DNA of 29,601 bases from positions 1-29,601 of the IMG/VR virus record IMGVR_UViG_3300020042_003032, one strand, 5' to 3'. The DNA is from a virus (taxonomy: Duplodnaviria; Caudoviricetes). Positions 7,667 through 17,678 of this stretch are shown piece by piece (position 1 is the stretch's first letter; each line of letters begins with the position of its first letter). The notes under the pieces were generated by a model, which saw only the letters and a list, made by a program, of their open reading frames with translations, did no database searches and was not told the origin of the DNA. The translations under genes were made by a program, and so were the position numbers.

Positions 7667-7852
7667 TAAATTTAGTAAGAATTTTAGCACTCTGTTAAGT
7701 CCTATAAAATAAGGGATTTTTCGCTAGTTTAAAGAAAAAGAAAAAGTAAGGTAAATATACCTTTATTAAAAATTTGTTGATAAAATAGCCTTTAAAATCG
7801 ATTTTAGCGTTTTTTCTGTATACATTTACATAAAATAACTAAAAATAAAATT

Positions 7853-8689
7853 ATGTCAAAATACCAGTATTTGAATAGTAATATTTTAGAATTACTGCAG
7901 TCTAATTTTAATAATACAGACATCGCAAGGGAGTTAATTCCAGAGGGAGATTATACAGAAATTGAAAATTTACGGAAGTATATATCTAAAATTAAGAGTA
8001 AAGATTTAGAAAATTTAGATCCGTATACTTTTGGAAATCCGAATAACATTTTAATAATTGGAGACTTGCACGCTCCATTTAATTTGCCTAGTTATTTAGA
8101 ATTTTGTTTAGAGCAACAAAAAAAGTTTAAATGTGGGACAGTAGTTTTTATCGGAGACGTAATAGACAATCACTATTCAAGTTATCACGAGAGTGATCCG
8201 GATGGAATGTCTGCCGGAGACGAACTAGACATCGCAATTTGCGAATTGCAAAAGTATTACAGAGTATTTCCAGAGGCAACTGTAATTATAGGCAATCACG
8301 ATAGATTGGTTTATCGTAAAGCATTTACTGGAGGAGTTTCTAAACGTTGGATTAAAGAGTACAAAGACGTATTAAAAGTCCCTAACTGGAATTTTGTAGA
8401 GAGTCTGGACCTATTCGATGTAAATATTAATCACGGAGAGGGAGGCACTGCCAGAATGAAAATGAAAAAAGAATTACAGAGCCAGATTCAAGGACATTTA
8501 CATTCGGATTTATATGTCGATTTTATAGTAGGTAAGAACTTTAGAATCTTTGGAATGCAAGTAGGATGCGGGATTGATTTTAAGAGTTATGCTATGGCCT
8601 ATGGTAAAAACTTTAAGAAACCAGCTATCGGATGTGGAGTACTTTTAAATAAGGGAACTCTGCCAATAGTGATACCAATGCACTTATAA
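7853..8689 (+). CDS. Calcineurin-like metallophosphoesterase with N-terminal helical/HTH-like region
   Basis: All five motifs present: GDLH, GDVID, GNHD, HG, GHLH. Confidence 0.85.
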   Translation: MSKYQYLNSNILELLQSNFNNTDIARELIPEGDYTEIENLRKYISKIKSKDLENLDPYTFGNPNNILIIGDLHAPFNLPSYLEFCLEQQKKFKCGTVVFIGDVIDNHYSSYHESDPDGMSAGDELDIAICELQKYYRVFPEATVIIGNHDRLVYRKAFTGGVSKRWIKEYKDVLKVPNWNFVESLDLFDVNINHGEGGTARMKMKKELQSQIQGHLHSDLYVDFIVGKNFRIFGMQVGCGIDFKSYAMAYGKNFKKPAIGCGVLLNKGTLPIVIPMHL

Positions 8690-8735
8690 ACATTTTTAGT
8701 AAATAAGTTTATTATCGTTATTTGAAATATCTTTT

Positions 8736-8743
8736 TATATTTG
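8736..8743 (+). promoter_or_regulatory. Bacteroidota-type -7 promoter element
   Basis: TATATTTG matches TAnnTTTG. No canonical -33 TTTG at the expected spacing. Confidence 0.5.
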
Positions 8744-8746
8744 GCC

Positions 8747-8838
8747 AATCAATTAGGATGCAACCTATTGATTTAGGTTGTTGAATAATTCAAAAAATAC
8801 ACCCTATTAAGACTTGCATCCTCTTGATAGGGTTTTTT
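8747..8838 (+). ncRNA. Putative structured small RNA or attenuator with complementary loops
   Basis: Follows a -7 element. The 5' hairpin carries GGATGCAA and the 3' terminator hairpin loop CTTGCATCC is complementary to it. Confidence 0.5.
8801..8838 (+). terminator. Rho-independent terminator
   Basis: ACCCTATTAAGA / TCTTGATAGGGT 12-bp stem (one G-U) followed by a T run. Confidence 0.8.
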
Positions 8839-9141
8839 GTTACATTAACAAATCGACATAAGGAATTAAGGGGAAGATTACAACAATTTGACTTATGTTT
8901 AAAGCACTAAAATGGGCTTCTAATGGTGCAACTGTAAACGATACTGCGATAGTCTAACTAAGTAGAATTAATAACAGAGAGAGAAGGAATGATTGAAAAA
9001 TTATCATTTCTGGATTAACACGAAAGTAGTTATTCCTTAAGGCTTCCTCTGTTTACTCACCAGCTCTAGTCTTCAAAGTAGAATTAATATATAATATAAT
9101 AACTATATTAGTTTAATTAATAATTAAATATATAATATATT

Positions 9142-9483
9142 ATGAATAAAGAAAAAATTATAAAAGTATTTGATAAGCAAATTAAACAAGAATTTAATGC
9201 TGAATTAAAAAAAGCAATTAAAAGTCAAGGATTAAATTATAAAGAAATTATAAAATGGAAAGAAGACAAAAAGAATTTAGAACTTTGCGAATCATATTTT
9301 TCAAAGGAAATATTTTTAAAGTCATTTAATTTTACAATTCAAGACTGGTGTGAAGTAAGATATGGAGATTATTATAATGAGTTAAAATTAGAAGAAGGGT
9401 TAAATAAAAAAAAATATACTCTTGATAAAATAAATCAATATATTAAATTTTTAAACCTAATTAATAAACAACTAAACAAATGA
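9142..9483 (+). CDS. Hypothetical protein
   Basis: 113 aa Lys-rich ORF, ATGA overlap with the next gene. Confidence 0.55.
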   Translation: MNKEKIIKVFDKQIKQEFNAELKKAIKSQGLNYKEIIKWKEDKKNLELCESYFSKEIFLKSFNFTIQDWCEVRYGDYYNELKLEEGLNKKKYTLDKINQYIKFLNLINKQLNK

Positions 9484-9731
9484 GTGATATAGCAAAGTGT
9501 TTAGACAGTTTATGTCCAAGTAAAGATTACTGTTATAGGTATACTGCTCCGGTAAGTTTAGTTTATCAATCTTATGGAGGATTTAGTAGAGAGGCAGACG
9601 AAGACAACTGTAATATGTTTTGGCCTAACGACAAAGACCTAAACAAGTGTAAACTAAACGGAGTTAAAAGAGAGGGAGAGATATGTAATTTAAAATACTG
9701 TACTTATCCAAAATGCGTACAAGACACGTAA
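9480..9731 (+). CDS. Cys-rich hypothetical protein
   Basis: MSDIAKC...CPSKDYCYRYTAP...CNMFW, plus a second Cys cluster; probable metal-binding protein. Confidence 0.6.
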   Translation: MSDIAKCLDSLCPSKDYCYRYTAPVSLVYQSYGGFSREADEDNCNMFWPNDKDLNKCKLNGVKREGEICNLKYCTYPKCVQDT

Positions 9732-9802
9732 CTTATAAGTTACTAATCGTTTAAATATAAACCTCAATTTTTAGGGTTTTAATTGACATAAAAAGTAAAG
9801 CA

Positions 9803-9895
9803 ATGAAATGTATATTTATATTTTTAGCATATGAATTTATAAGACCAAAAGTAATTTGGTTATGGTATTACTTAATTAAAAAAGCAACAGAATGA
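9803..9895 (+). CDS. Small hydrophobic protein (30 aa), not in the ORF track
   Basis: MKCIFIFLAYEFIRPKVIWLWYYLIKKATE; ATGA overlap with the lipoprotein gene. Confidence 0.45.
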   Translation: MKCIFIFLAYEFIRPKVIWLWYYLIKKATE

Positions 9896-10404
9896 AAACA
9901 GAAAACGACAACGGAAATAATATTTTACTAATAGCTATTGTACTAGCTTTAATTACTGCAATAGTTTTAACGTCTTGCGGTAGCAGAAAGGTCCAGAAGT
10001 CACAAACCAAAGAAAGCGAGACAAATGTGGAATCGACTACCGAAAAAGTACAGAATAATTTAACAGACAATACTAAAATAATTGACAGTTCGTCAAGCGA
10101 TGAGTTAGAGATTAGTCCGGTATCTGACACAATTCCTATGGTTGTAAATGGAATAACGTACAAAAACGCTAAAATTACACGTAAAAAAACTAAAAACAAT
10201 ATAAGTATAGTAAAAGATGTAAAAGTCCAGCATAAAGCACAAAAAAGCGGTTTAAAGACGGTTAAAAAAGACTTAATAATCGAAAGGAAAGTAATAGACA
10301 GAAAACAATCATTCTGGTGGTTACTTTGGTTTTTACTTTTAATACCGGCATATTACTTATGGAGAAAGTATAATATGTCAAAATTATTTTTTTTGTTTAA
10401 ATGA
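9892..10404 (+). CDS. Lipoprotein with C-terminal transmembrane helix; unimolecular spanin-like
   Basis: Hydrophobic signal and lipobox LTS-C29, soluble middle region, C-terminal FWWLLWFLLLIPAYYLW followed by RK. Confidence 0.65.
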   Translation: MKTENDNGNNILLIAIVLALITAIVLTSCGSRKVQKSQTKESETNVESTTEKVQNNLTDNTKIIDSSSSDELEISPVSDTIPMVVNGITYKNAKITRKKTKNNISIVKDVKVQHKAQKSGLKTVKKDLIIERKVIDRKQSFWWLLWFLLLIPAYYLWRKYNMSKLFFLFK

Positions 10405-10952
10405 AAGATAAGAAGTGCAAAGTTTGTCAAACTAAATTTACTCCGGTGCAATTCGCTCAAGCAGTCTGCAATTATAAGTGTGCTATTGAACACTCAAAGA
10501 ATCTTAAACAACAAAAAGAGCAAAGAGAATGGAAAGCAGAGAAAGCCGTTTTAAGAGACAAACTTAAAACTTTAGGACAATACGAGGCAGAGGCAAAAAG
10601 ATCGTTTCAAAAGTACATTAGAATGCGAGATAATAAACAACCTTGCATAAGTTGTGGAATAGAAAACACAGAACTCTGGGACGGAGGCCATTTTAAAAAA
10701 GCAGAGATATACTCTGGAGTTATATTTGATGAGAGTAACTGCCATAAACAATGCAGAAAGTGTAACAGATTTCTAGGAGGCAATGAATTAAATTACAGAT
10801 CTGGACTTATTCAGAGATACGGAATAGAATACACAGACCAGATAGAAGAGAAAGCAAACAACACACGCAACTACAAGTTTACAAAAGAGGAACTAATCGC
10901 AAAGAAATTAAAATACGATATTTTAATAAAAGAGTTTGTCAAGTCAAAATAA
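10401..10952 (+). CDS. ninG: NinG/Rap-family recombination endonuclease
   Basis: CKVC...CNYKC zinc ribbon; YIRMRD..PCISCG, DGGHF and NCHKQCRKCN HNH-like motifs. Confidence 0.88.
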   Translation: MKDKKCKVCQTKFTPVQFAQAVCNYKCAIEHSKNLKQQKEQREWKAEKAVLRDKLKTLGQYEAEAKRSFQKYIRMRDNKQPCISCGIENTELWDGGHFKKAEIYSGVIFDESNCHKQCRKCNRFLGGNELNYRSGLIQRYGIEYTDQIEEKANNTRNYKFTKEELIAKKLKYDILIKEFVKSK

Positions 10953-10965
10953 AACACTACATTTG
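10935..10965 (+). promoter_or_regulatory. Canonical Bacteroidota primary-sigma promoter
   Basis: TTTG (10935-10938), 19-nt spacer, TACATTTG (10958-10965). Confidence 0.75.
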
Positions 10966-10969
10966 GCTA

Positions 10970-11040
10970 ATATTGTTTCATAATTATTACTTTGTTTTGG
11001 TTAAAGAATCCCAGTCTTTTATTAGGTTGGGATTTTTTTT
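10970..11040 (+). ncRNA. Putative ~70-nt antisense sRNA targeting phage translation starts
   Basis: Has its own promoter and terminator and no ORF. Body TGTTTCATAATTATTACTTTGTTTTGGTT is the reverse complement of an AACCAAAACAAA...ATTATGAAACA leader consensus. Confidence 0.6.
11007..11040 (+). terminator. Rho-independent terminator
   Basis: AATCCCAGTCT / AGGTTGGGATT stem with two G-U pairs, then a T run. Confidence 0.8.
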
Positions 11041-11095
11041 TAATCTTTTTTTAAAAATAATTACAAAAAAGTTTTTTTATTAACAAAATGTTTAT

Positions 11096-11103
11096 TAAGT
11101 TTG
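11096..11103 (+). promoter_or_regulatory. Bacteroidota-type -7 element for the early operon
   Basis: TAAGTTTG, 28 nt upstream of the first small early ORF; -33 region is T-rich but not canonical. Confidence 0.55.
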
Positions 11104-11131
11104 TCCTCGTTAAACAATTAAACCAAAACAA

Positions 11132-11218
11132 ATGAAAACATTTTTATTAAAACAAAAGTACCAAGTTTACGCAATAGGATTTATTGCTGTATATTTTTTA
11201 ACTAGATTTTTTTACTAA
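11132..11218 (+). CDS. Small membrane peptide (28 aa), not in the ORF track
   Basis: MKTFLLKQKYQVYAIGFIAVYFLTRFFY, preceded by an AAACCAAAACA leader. Confidence 0.5.
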   Translation: MKTFLLKQKYQVYAIGFIAVYFLTRFFY

Positions 11219-11228
11219 ACAAAACATT

Positions 11229-11444
11229 ATGAAAAACGCAGTACAATTTATTAAAGATTTTGGAATAGATGATAATTGGAAAGATTTAACATTAGGAGAT
11301 TTAATAAAATCCGATATTCCAGATTTAGTAATTGATAATTTTGAAATGGCTATTAAATTAGTTAAAAGAAGTGGACTTAAAAATGTTCAATTAAGACAAG
11401 ATTGCAAAATAAATGGTGGAACAATGGAATGGGATAACTTTTAA
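11229..11444 (+). CDS. Hypothetical early protein
   Basis: 71 aa with an A-rich leader. Confidence 0.6.
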   Translation: MKNAVQFIKDFGIDDNWKDLTLGDLIKSDIPDLVIDNFEMAIKLVKRSGLKNVQLRQDCKINGGTMEWDNF

Positions 11445-13379: not shown

Positions 13380-13401
13380 GGCCGGATGTAATAGTCCGGC
13401 C
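13380..13401 (+). terminator. GC-rich hairpin between ssb and helicase (weak terminator or stabilising stem)
   Basis: GGCCGGA-N8-TCCGGCC followed only by ATTATTT. Confidence 0.5.
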
Positions 13402-13420
13402 ATTATTTAAACCAAAACAG

Positions 13421-14332
13421 ATGCTAATAGATTATAATAAACAATTAGATATACTCCGCCAGATTAGGTCTGGTAAACTCAAAGAGGGATTAAAACTAGA
13501 TATACCACAAATAGATGAGTATATAAGATTTAAACCTAGCAATTTTAATATAGTACTAGGACACGCAAACGTAGGTAAAACAACTAGCATTCTTTATTTA
13601 ATGCTTTGTTACTCTTTAAAGCACGATTTGAAATGGCTAGTTTGCAGCACAGAGAATGATTCATATTCTTTGATTAGAAAGTTAGTTGAATTCCTAGACG
13701 AGACTCCGATAAATTTAGTTTCTGAAAGCAACTTTAAAACTCACACAGATTTTATTAATAAGCATTTTAAATTTGTAGATAACGCAACAATGTACGATTA
13801 TCATTCTGCGATTGATATATTTAAAAAAGTAAAAAAAGAGTTTAACTACAATGGAATATTACTAGACCCGTACAATGCTTTGATTAAAGATAACGATTTA
13901 ATGAAAAATCTAGGAGGACACGAATACGATTATCAAGCGTGTACCGAAATGAGAATGTTTTGCAAAGAATTTAAAATTAGTCTATGGTTAAATACTCACG
14001 CAAACACAAACGCATTAAGACAAGTTTACAGAGCAGATCATCCATTCGCTGGGCATCCACTTCCACCAATGGCAAGTGACGTAGAGGGAGGAGGAAAGTT
14101 CGTAAACAGAGCAGACGATTTTATAGTAGTACACCGGTTAACTTTGCATCCACAATTATACACAACTACGATGCTGCATATACGAAAGATAAAAGAGATT
14201 GAAACCGGAGGCCGTCCTACTAGCATAGATAATCCGATTGAAATTGTAGCTTTGCAGAATAATGTAGGATTTAGTATAGACGGTAAATCAATATTGAGGA
14301 CTATAAAAGAAAGCCAACTAAATTTTTTGTAA
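13421..14332 (+). CDS. DnaB-like (SF4) replicative helicase
   Basis: Walker A GHANVGKT, STE, Walker B LLDPYN, and DVEGGGKFVNRAD motif. Confidence 0.8.
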   Translation: MLIDYNKQLDILRQIRSGKLKEGLKLDIPQIDEYIRFKPSNFNIVLGHANVGKTTSILYLMLCYSLKHDLKWLVCSTENDSYSLIRKLVEFLDETPINLVSESNFKTHTDFINKHFKFVDNATMYDYHSAIDIFKKVKKEFNYNGILLDPYNALIKDNDLMKNLGGHEYDYQACTEMRMFCKEFKISLWLNTHANTNALRQVYRADHPFAGHPLPPMASDVEGGGKFVNRADDFIVVHRLTLHPQLYTTTMLHIRKIKEIETGGRPTSIDNPIEIVALQNNVGFSIDGKSILRTIKESQLNFL

Positions 14333-14872
14333 ATGAAAATACTCGATGTCCTATTCGTAAAGCATTCCACTTGGTTAAAATACGTTAAATCATTTGGTTG
14401 CCCGGATGACATCGCAGAGGATTACGTCCAAGAGATGTACATTAAAATCTATAATTATAGTCAGACTAAAAATAACGATTTAATGTATGACGGAGAAGAG
14501 GTAAACTATTTTTTTGTATACGTCACTTTAAAAAATATGTACTTCGATGATTTACGTAAAAACAAAAAGAAAATATACGTAAACATAGAGGACATTATTC
14601 TAGTAGAAGAGGAAATCGAATACTCGGAGAATAAGTTTTATTTCCAGAAAGATTTAGTTAGTAACTGGATAAAAGAGTTAAACAACGAAATAGACTCAAT
14701 AGAAGACCATACAGAGTACAAAGCTAGTCTCTGTTATATAAAGTTCATTTATCAAAAAATATTCGTTGAGAGTTACTCTATTACAGATTTAAGCGAAGAG
14801 ACAAAATTAAGTTACTGGAGCATCCGTAACACAGTTAAAAGAATCAAAGAACAAATAAAAAATGAGACATAA
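14333..14872 (+). CDS. Phage-encoded ECF-like RNA polymerase sigma factor
   Basis: Region 2 pattern (AEDYVQEMYIK...LKNMYFDDLRK) and C-terminal region 4 HTH (YSITDLSEETKLSYWSIRNTVKR); 179 aa. Confidence 0.78.
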   Translation: MKILDVLFVKHSTWLKYVKSFGCPDDIAEDYVQEMYIKIYNYSQTKNNDLMYDGEEVNYFFVYVTLKNMYFDDLRKNKKKIYVNIEDIILVEEEIEYSENKFYFQKDLVSNWIKELNNEIDSIEDHTEYKASLCYIKFIYQKIFVESYSITDLSEETKLSYWSIRNTVKRIKEQIKNET

Positions 14873-16024: not shown

Positions 16025-16055
16025 TTTGTTAATAAACTAAAAAAGATTATCTTTG
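16025..16055 (+). promoter_or_regulatory. Canonical Bacteroidota primary-sigma promoter
   Basis: TTTG (16025-16028), 19-nt spacer, TATCTTTG (16048-16055). Confidence 0.75.
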
Positions 16056-16080
16056 TAAACAAACCAAAACAAAAAATAAT

Positions 16081-16197
16081 ATGAATGAATTAATCAAAAC
16101 AGAGGCACTACTCAAAGAAATAATACAAGACAGAGAAAGAGCCAAAAAAGAACTAGAGCATCAAATAGAGGAAATAACTAGACTTGTAACAATATGA
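16081..16197 (+). CDS. Small coiled-coil protein (38 aa), not in the ORF track
   Basis: MNELIKTEALLKEIIQDRERAKKELEHQIEEITRLVTI; follows the promoter and an AAACCAAAACA leader; ATGA overlap with the exonuclease. Confidence 0.6.
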   Translation: MNELIKTEALLKEIIQDRERAKKELEHQIEEITRLVTI

Positions 16198-16904: not shown

Positions 16905-17285
16905 ATGGAATACAAATTAATAGCCAACGAGATAAAAGATACACTAAAAGTAAATGTATTTGAGAACTCACGAAAGAGACCAATAATAGACGCAAGGAGT
17001 TTATTCTGTTACATACTACGCAAAGATTTTAATTTAACGTTACATAGTATAGCAGACATATACAAGAGCAAAGGAAAAAATTATAATCACGCAACAGTAA
17101 TTCACTCTGTTAATAATTACGAGATAGCATCCAAAGACGATAGAAGACTTGAAGAGATAAGAGCCAAAGTATTAAAACTAACTAATCCTCAAGCAGTACT
17201 TATAAATAGAATAAGAGACATATACGACATAGATAGACTACAAGGATTACACAACTTAATAGATTTCCAAGAACAACAAATCTAA
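16905..17285 (+). CDS. DnaA C-terminal-like HTH DNA-binding protein
   Basis: SRKR.IIDAR...LR...LTLHSIA...NHATVIHSV resembles DnaA domain IV. Confidence 0.7.
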   Translation: MEYKLIANEIKDTLKVNVFENSRKRPIIDARSLFCYILRKDFNLTLHSIADIYKSKGKNYNHATVIHSVNNYEIASKDDRRLEEIRAKVLKLTNPQAVLINRIRDIYDIDRLQGLHNLIDFQEQQI

Positions 17286-17291
17286 TAAAAT

Positions 17292-17678
17292 ATGGAAAGA
17301 ATATATCACAGATATGAGTATTGGGAATGTTATAAGAATGGTTTTTTTCGTAATGTTTCTGGAGAAGAAAAAAAAGAATTGTCAAAAAAAGTAATAGAAC
17401 TTTTTACAGATACAAAATTGACTGAAAAATATATGAATAAAGTTATAAATGAATGGCATTATTCGTGTGAGCATAACTTAACAAATATATCATTAAACAG
17501 AATAGCTTGGTTAGGTCAATCTGCTTGTTGTTTATATGCCAAAATACCATACAGTATAACAATGGAAAATTGGCGTTTTGTAGACGAGGAGAACAGAAAT
17601 ATAGCTTGTGAAATAGCAGACAAAATAATAAAAGAATATCAAACCAAAAACAAACAATTATGCCTAAACATTATTTAA
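17292..17678 (+). CDS. Uncharacterised protein heading the IbrAB-like cassette
   Basis: 128 aa, aromatic- and Cys-rich (YH..EYWEC...W..SCEHNLTN...NRIAWLGQSACC); overlaps the PAPS-reductase-like gene by 19 nt. Confidence 0.65.
   Translation: MERIYHRYEYWECYKNGFFRNVSGEEKKELSKKVIELFTDTKLTEKYMNKVINEWHYSCEHNLTNISLNRIAWLGQSACCLYAKIPYSITMENWRFVDEENRNIACEIADKIIKEYQTKNKQLCLNII

Follow-up and report, generated by a model that had tools for sequence, protein, structure and literature searches.

The window analysed here is a virus record of 29.6 kb, in which every long open reading frame (ORF) lies on the plus strand. The genes follow the order head, lysis, ninG, then small early ORFs, Erf, SSB, helicase, exonuclease, an IbrA/ParB-like pair, and terminase. 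Judging from the TAnnTTTG promoter boxes and the A-rich leaders, we infer that the host belongs to the Bacteroidota. Cultured phages include no close relative (best helicase identity, 29%), and they gave no meaningful DNA match to the unit that is the subject of this report, a short promoter-to-terminator element located immediately downstream of ninG. The genes and the hairpin most relevant to this unit are:

10401..10952, plus strand: ninG/Rap endonuclease (PHROG 171, E 5.9e-54), the final gene ahead of the unit, with the -33 box of the unit inside its 3' end
13380..13401, no strand assigned: hairpin between SSB and helicase, with a similar hairpin in most relatives displayed
13421..14332, plus strand: DnaB-like/primase-helicase (PHROG 18375, E 7e-34)
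14333..14872, plus strand: ECF-like sigma factor, its ATG immediately 3' of the helicase stop (TIGR02937, E 2.4e-6, under the curated cut-off)

The ECF-like sigma ORF had no Pfam hit and no match in PDB sequence searches; 574 homologues were found, and all of the 83 aligned homologues match TIGR02937. From the junction of the two genes, we infer that helicase and sigma factor are translationally coupled. A DnaA C-terminal-type HTH protein (16905-17285; PF08299, E 5.6e-7, slightly under the cut-off) is a further candidate transcription regulator. The initial annotation of this DNA had described a phage with no recognisable protein repressor, a description that needs correcting, since both the ECF-like sigma factor and the DnaA_C-type HTH protein are regulator-like. 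The check for lysogeny genes covered two families in five near-complete relatives (30.7-33.6 kb, 94-100% complete), and neither the PF00589 integrase (0/5) nor the PF01381 HTH domain (0/5) was found.

The unit (10935-11041) and the predicted promoters of the early genes consist of the following elements:

10935..10938, plus strand: -33 element TTTG, 19 nt 5' of the -7 box
10958..10965, plus strand: -7 element TAnnTTTG, here TACATTTG, of the Bacteroidota sigma-A type; predicted transcription start near 10970
10970..11006, plus strand: U-rich pairing region, with an anti-ATG (CAT) at 10979-10981 and the anti-leader core TTTGTTTTGGTT at 10991-11002
11007..11041, plus strand: intrinsic terminator, hairpin at 11007-11034 and T run up to 11041
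11096..11103, plus strand: -7 box of the predicted first early promoter, between the terminator and the first early ATG
16025..16055, plus strand: predicted second early promoter TTTG-19-TATCTTTG

A promoter and a terminator enclosing a non-coding tract had been noted previously, and all of the coordinates hold: TTTG-19-TACATTTG and the terminator flank 10970-11006, whose complement looks like a leader followed by ATG. The -7 box of F. psychrophilum is described as located at -12 to -5 (PMC9723704), which would place the start near 10970 and leave ~70 nt to the T run. Because the -7 box by itself is frequent in the window (65 matches vs 47 expected), the promoter call is based on the -33 box together with the conserved position; a sigma-70 promoter scan is uninformative for a Bacteroidota-type promoter. 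The terminator is positioned such that it could also end the upstream late/ninG transcript. The predicted fold of the unit, a single terminator hairpin plus a weak 5' hairpin, beats 199/200 shuffles (z -3.2), chiefly owing to the terminator. The tract between promoter and terminator had been called unstructured, which is not entirely accurate: the weak hairpin is predicted across the seed, with an unpaired probability of about 0.2-0.3. No Rfam family reached the gathering score in the window, and the only weak matches in 8600-11300 were VrrA (E 0.73) and NsiR1 (E 4.1). An intergenic position with its own promoter and intrinsic terminator, as expected of a trans-encoded sRNA, is thus seen at the level of sequence and conservation.

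A quasi-palindrome, TTTRTTRRYAAA, occurs at 11076-11087, 16025-16036, and 7773-7784, 5' of predicted promoters and overlapping the -33 position; we did not adopt it as an operator at the two early promoters. A second promoter-RNA-terminator unit of about 90 nt lies at 8736-8837 (plus strand), with the conserved core CCTATTGATTTAGG and no Rfam match. Complementarity links its 5' loop region to the loop of the terminator, and the two change together (mean 8.0 nt within own sequences vs 3.75 in cross combinations; 17 sequences, 15 distinct 5' loops); the arrangement resembles that of a kissing-loop or pseudoknot RNA. Several relatives share yet another unit, about 100 nt long and made up of promoter, hairpin, and T run, in their terminase-head region (L016 ~10442, L023 ~18800, L043 ~11977).

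Relatives were collected by three routes. The ninG route yielded 40 loci, of which 20 are syntenic (L001-L018, L023, and L024); in these the -7 box stands right after the ninG stop and is followed by a U-rich tract, and the terminator is present where the contig reaches far enough. The remaining 20 carry ninG in other contexts. Helicase and Erf scans enlarged the set to 189 loci, which were merged with the window into 143 stretches, and a script called the anti-leader unit in 88 of them. The calls were curated by dropping three miscalls (L002, L055, and L169), re-picking three (L156, L158, and L185), and shortening the pairing region by hand in 12, and the analysis set consists of 50 genomes, each with a distinct unit and no fewer than 12 early starts. 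Because the scripted call selected for promoter and hairpin, independent evidence for both comes only from the 20 syntenic ninG loci; genes were called by a simple ORF script, and some of the starts are bound to be incorrect. Among the 64 related contig groups whose helicase is >50% identical and whose upstream DNA extends for 2.3 kb or more, the unit was called in 57, and a relaxed look added three. In three of the stretches still without a unit, about 1.4 kb precedes Erf; these may be truncated contigs. L102 (4560-5330) is a true miss: an anti-leader unit is lacking behind its ninG, and the ATG of its helicase and the stop of its SSB overlap; in this one case, both the unit and a free helicase leader are missing. 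The -7 box occurs in eight variants at its nn positions, and the terminator stem varies in sequence while the hairpin itself is kept.

The antisense tract might function solely as the 3' end of the late/ninG mRNA, either intact or processed, and the -7 box might be incidental; the same pairing would then be strictly late. The terminator does share its strand with ninG and lies 3' of it, TAnnTTTG occurs often in the window, and a TTG-containing box at the -33 position is found in only 29/50 relatives. This reading is nevertheless improbable, because the -7 box stands just after the ninG stop in 20/20 syntenic loci while its two free positions vary, and because in unrelated phages the box sits at the end of different upstream genes. 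It is extremely improbable that the unit is the start of a leftward gene or its relic, an idea suggested by the resemblance of the minus strand to a leader plus ATG. CAT is missing in 14/50 units and the others give 1-37 codons with no common length, the T run is on the plus-strand side, and between the terminator and the first early ATG a rightward box is present in 34/50 relatives and a leftward -7 box in 1/50. The earlier statement that this is not a reverse gene start is therefore borne out, in that there is no conserved leftward ORF.

The predicted targets of the unit in the window are:

11121..11134, plus strand: leader and ATG of the first early ORF (11132-11218); 12-nt perfect complement
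13409..13435, plus strand: helicase start region; 10-nt perfect complement, -16.5 to -17.0 kcal/mol
16062..16095, plus strand: start region (leader with ATG) of ORF 16081, which precedes the exonuclease; perfect complement of 12 nt at -20.1 kcal/mol, the best-pairing early start
17642..17662, plus strand: leader of the IbrA-like PAPS-reductase/DUF3440 gene, a weaker target; 8-nt run, -14.6 kcal/mol

Full or partial copies of a 12-mer leader motif had been reported before several early starts. Sense AACCAAAAC was indeed found at 11121, 13410, and 16062, with a one-mismatch copy at 17642; the exact motif occurs four times in the window, once antisense in the unit and three times ahead of early starts, whereas 100 shuffles gave 0.58 copies on average and never as many as four. 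The partial matches claimed before 11229, 11466, 12198, and 12418 are not significant alone, the one-mismatch motif being at chance (15 vs 14.6). The core had not been noticed before structural genes; ACCAAAA stands before 4/23 early and 0/30 late starts (Fisher p=0.03). The best-pairing early starts are 16081, 11466, 13421, and 11132, and the helicase start is the most conserved pairing site among related phages. Raw pairing energy is unspecific: a duplex-energy scan of 1971 windows put 16081 first and the helicase start fourth, yet many coding windows score alike.

Across the 50 genomes, a perfect complement of at least 9 nt was found at 232/1126 early vs 48/582 late starts, and at 146/275 early vs 25/214 late starts when only free leaders were considered; these counts include related genomes, and their p-values are therefore inflated. 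The expectation that pairing would exceed that of shuffled controls was borne out in part, with 35/50 units beating dinucleotide shuffles at z<-2 and early leaders scoring above late ones, while 15/50 units miss z<-2. Single mismatches compatible with G-U pairing were not in excess (0.15 at cognate sites vs 0.21 at late and 0.19 at shuffled sites), so that pairing as RNA is without direct support from wobble.

The initial annotation had named covariation between the element and the leader motifs of related phages as a check, and such covariation was observed: seed and early leaders change together across relatives. Genomes whose units carry TTTTGGT have ACCAAAA in 18/147 early leaders vs 8/979 for units without that complement; those with TTTAGTG have CACTAAA in 105/496 vs 8/630 otherwise, and those with CATTGTTT have AAACAATG at 10/48 starts vs 14/1078 otherwise. 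Other candidate seeds match few leaders (ATAACAAA 6/173, AAACAAAG 2/118, AGAACAGA 0/92). L008 has a helicase 97% identical to that of the window, yet it carries an AGTG seed, six ACTAAAA leaders, and no ACCAAAA leader. The CC/CT switch in the freshwater clade corresponds to about one event on the tree, and on the helicase tree the GGTT seed itself has about one origin. GGTT units scored -18.8 against genomes of their own type and -15.6 against AGTG genomes, and AGTG units -16.3 and -14.7; these scores do not support a one-sided cross-silencing between seed types.

When 43 distinct units were compared in a cross-matrix, the advantage of the own genome amounted to -4.56 kcal/mol at the start following SSB (usually the helicase; 0/10,000 permutations), a target picked by eye before the test and thus post hoc. 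It was -3.89 kcal/mol at the helicase start and -3.35 kcal/mol at the first early gene (0/10,000 permutations each), with a small effect also at the gene after the helicase (-0.77, p 0.019). Control starts showed no own-genome preference (SSB +0.63; ninG -0.36, n=30). When six lineages (<70% helicase identity) were each represented by one genome, the own RNA ranked first at the post-SSB start in 6/6 (p 0.0018), vs p 0.50-0.68 at the control starts. Short imperfect complementarity to distant targets, kept by covariation as in trans-encoded sRNAs, was thus found, and by these comparisons the most conserved predicted target is the start after SSB, usually that of the helicase, which adjoins the sigma-factor gene.

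Alternatively, the tag might work as DNA, be it as a protein-binding site, as an inverted leader copy whose likeness is maintained by recombination between repeated leaders, or as a 12-bp inverted repeat (10991-11002/11121-11132) that inverts the early promoter. The match crosses the start codon in register, and deep lineages without repeated leaders show a lineage-specific, split match to the helicase start, neither of which favours a DNA-level role. The invertible segment in particular was rejected, as no inverted form was found among the 64 contigs (seven without a called unit, the other 57 in the same orientation) and no tyrosine recombinase (PF00589) was found in the five near-complete relatives. 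On the other side stand the lack of a wobble signature, the repeated leaders flanking exchangeable small early genes, and the presence of an HTH gene; on balance, we regard a DNA-level role as quite improbable.

Bacteroidota starts are described as generally A-rich (PMC7797042) and a U-rich RNA pairs widely, so the RNA could be aimed mainly at host mRNAs with A-rich leaders devoid of a Shine-Dalgarno (SD) sequence, or at an RNA-binding protein, the phage leaders matching simply as typical strong leaders. The tag before ATG was not enriched in five Flavobacteriaceae genomes, which may not include the host (AAACCAAAAC..ATG 12, 25, 39, 22, and 21 vs 13, 34, 44, 21, and 25 for the reversed control). 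Moreover, the seed follows the phage's own leaders and spares the late ones, which makes this reading very improbable. A pattern scan of bacterial genomes returned mostly noise, with a hairpin in 11/120 returned loci (6/64 parts scanned). Units that join a -7 box and a TTTTAGTG tract to a hairpin with T run occur in four bacterial genome records, L202 (~2500) and L239 (Flavobacterium) as well as L253 and L290; the hairpin is common to L202 and L239. These units may be host sRNAs or 3' UTRs of like type.

The same scan of viral sequences, in which the pattern comprised the -7 box, TTTTGGTTA, and a T run and specified neither CAT nor a hairpin, returned 120 of ~250 estimated loci. A real hairpin is present in 51 of these 120, and apart from one family member, the helicases of the 51 loci are ~30% identical or absent. 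Among the non-redundant hairpin-bearing units in unrelated phages, the anti-ATG was found in 22/26 vs 5.7 expected, mostly 15-21 nt from the core, which equals the tag-to-ATG distance of real leaders; in units without a hairpin, it was found in 16/50 vs 15.0 expected. When the own-genome comparison was applied to 16 unrelated phages (12-kb windows, shared seed), it did not reach significance (p 0.17). Two loci of a distant phage group (L340 and L375) have as best-pairing start a 209-codon gene, by position just 5' of a helicase-like gene.

Taken together, the comparisons indicate that the unit is a real, conserved element with comparative support for a putative anti-leader RNA. We consider it likely that the unit makes a ~70-nt trans-acting RNA that would repress translation of early genes, mainly the helicase and the ECF-like sigma factor, as a feedback timer. 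The anti-leader sRNA proposed in the initial annotation is accordingly upheld in part: covariation, stronger pairing with early than with late starts, and the advantage of the real sequence over shuffles speak for it, and the raw duplex energy, being unspecific, does not. The host sigma-A factor would initiate the RNA at about 10970, and late transcripts through ninG would stop at the same terminator and supply additional RNA. The RNA would pair in trans with the tag common to early start regions, above all at the helicase start, its 9-12-nt core covering target positions from about -12 to -1 and its anti-AUG lengthening the duplex. In Flavobacterium, initiation is described as independent of a Shine-Dalgarno sequence and dependent instead on low structure and on adenines at -3, -6, -12, and -13 (PMC7797042). 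Since the predicted duplex extends over these adenine positions and the AUG, occlusion of the ribosome is the likely effect. Since the sigma ORF begins right after the helicase stop, repression at the helicase start would probably lower the sigma factor too. With genome copy number and late transcription, the RNA would accumulate and damp the early proteins, among them the helicase and the sigma factor encoded next to it, the outcome being a negative-feedback timer that closes the early phase; such a timer is suggested by the host-type promoter and by the position of the terminator, which is also 3' of ninG.

A more far-reaching reading, which we regard as unlikely, makes the RNA a master repressor that silences the helicase-sigma operon and the tagged early starts, governs the level of replication or a dormant carrier state, and shuts out co-infecting relatives, in a Bacteroidota phage family of roughly 31 kb in which no integrase or CI-like protein was found. 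If so, seed and leader tags would diverge jointly as RNA-defined immunity groups, and the family would be one case of a wider strategy of Bacteroidota phages, whose SD-less leaders are free to carry a private tag read by an anti-leader RNA. With the present unit, a single RNA appears to be directed at an entire class of early genes of its own phage by means of a common leader tag, and this tag has been rewritten along with the RNA in several lineages. Confirmation would establish a protein-free early shut-off or replication control in Bacteroidota phages and point to a function for leaders that lack an SD sequence; the seed-leader pairs found in nature already amount to compensatory mutants. 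In the literature, we found no description of such an anti-leader unit in Bacteroidota phages; supplementary tables could hold one.

Dose-dependent repression of a replication gene is known from the plasmid copy-number antisense RNAs CopA and RNAI, which are cis-encoded and have one target. The CI RNA of P4 provides RNA-based immunity and causes transcription termination, and T4 RegA, which shuts off many early starts, is a protein. The present unit is not a cis-encoded antisense RNA of the sar, OOP, or CopA type, because it lies on the same strand as all genes, does not overlap its targets, and has a longest perfect complement of 12 nt instead of full complementarity. P22 sar, lambda OOP, and aQ are phage RNAs that repress a phage gene by pairing, but they act on one gene each and are described as antisense-encoded (PMC12197685), whereas the unit stands apart from several targets. 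SviR of the Vibrio phage satellite PLE is a trans-acting multi-target sRNA that lowers translation of viral genes; as described, it serves a conflict between satellite and helper and uses distinct seed regions (bioRxiv 10.1101/2022.04.08.487710), while one tract of the unit mirrors the tag common to the phage's own early starts.

A close parallel is the c4 RNA of P1/P7 (Rfam C4), a phage-encoded RNA of about 70-77 nt that acts in trans near ribosome-binding sites of the phage's own mRNA and whose specificity shifts through covariation of RNA and target (PMC5320573). The c4 RNA folds into three stem-loops, is released from its precursor by RNase P, and forms part of a lysogeny immunity system. 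The unit differs in its one terminator hairpin, its linear U-rich tract, and its several dispersed early targets including the helicase, and the five relatives checked gave no integrase (PF00589) or HTH_3 repressor (PF01381). Neither an Rfam C4 match nor three stem-loops with the pairing loops a' and b' were found, and the unit was rejected as a C4 RNA; by analogy, it would work like the c4 RNA of P1 but is not a C4 RNA. As far as they are described in the sources cited, the self-regulating phage RNAs that we found each control one gene or a lysogeny switch, in contrast to the class-wide target proposed here.
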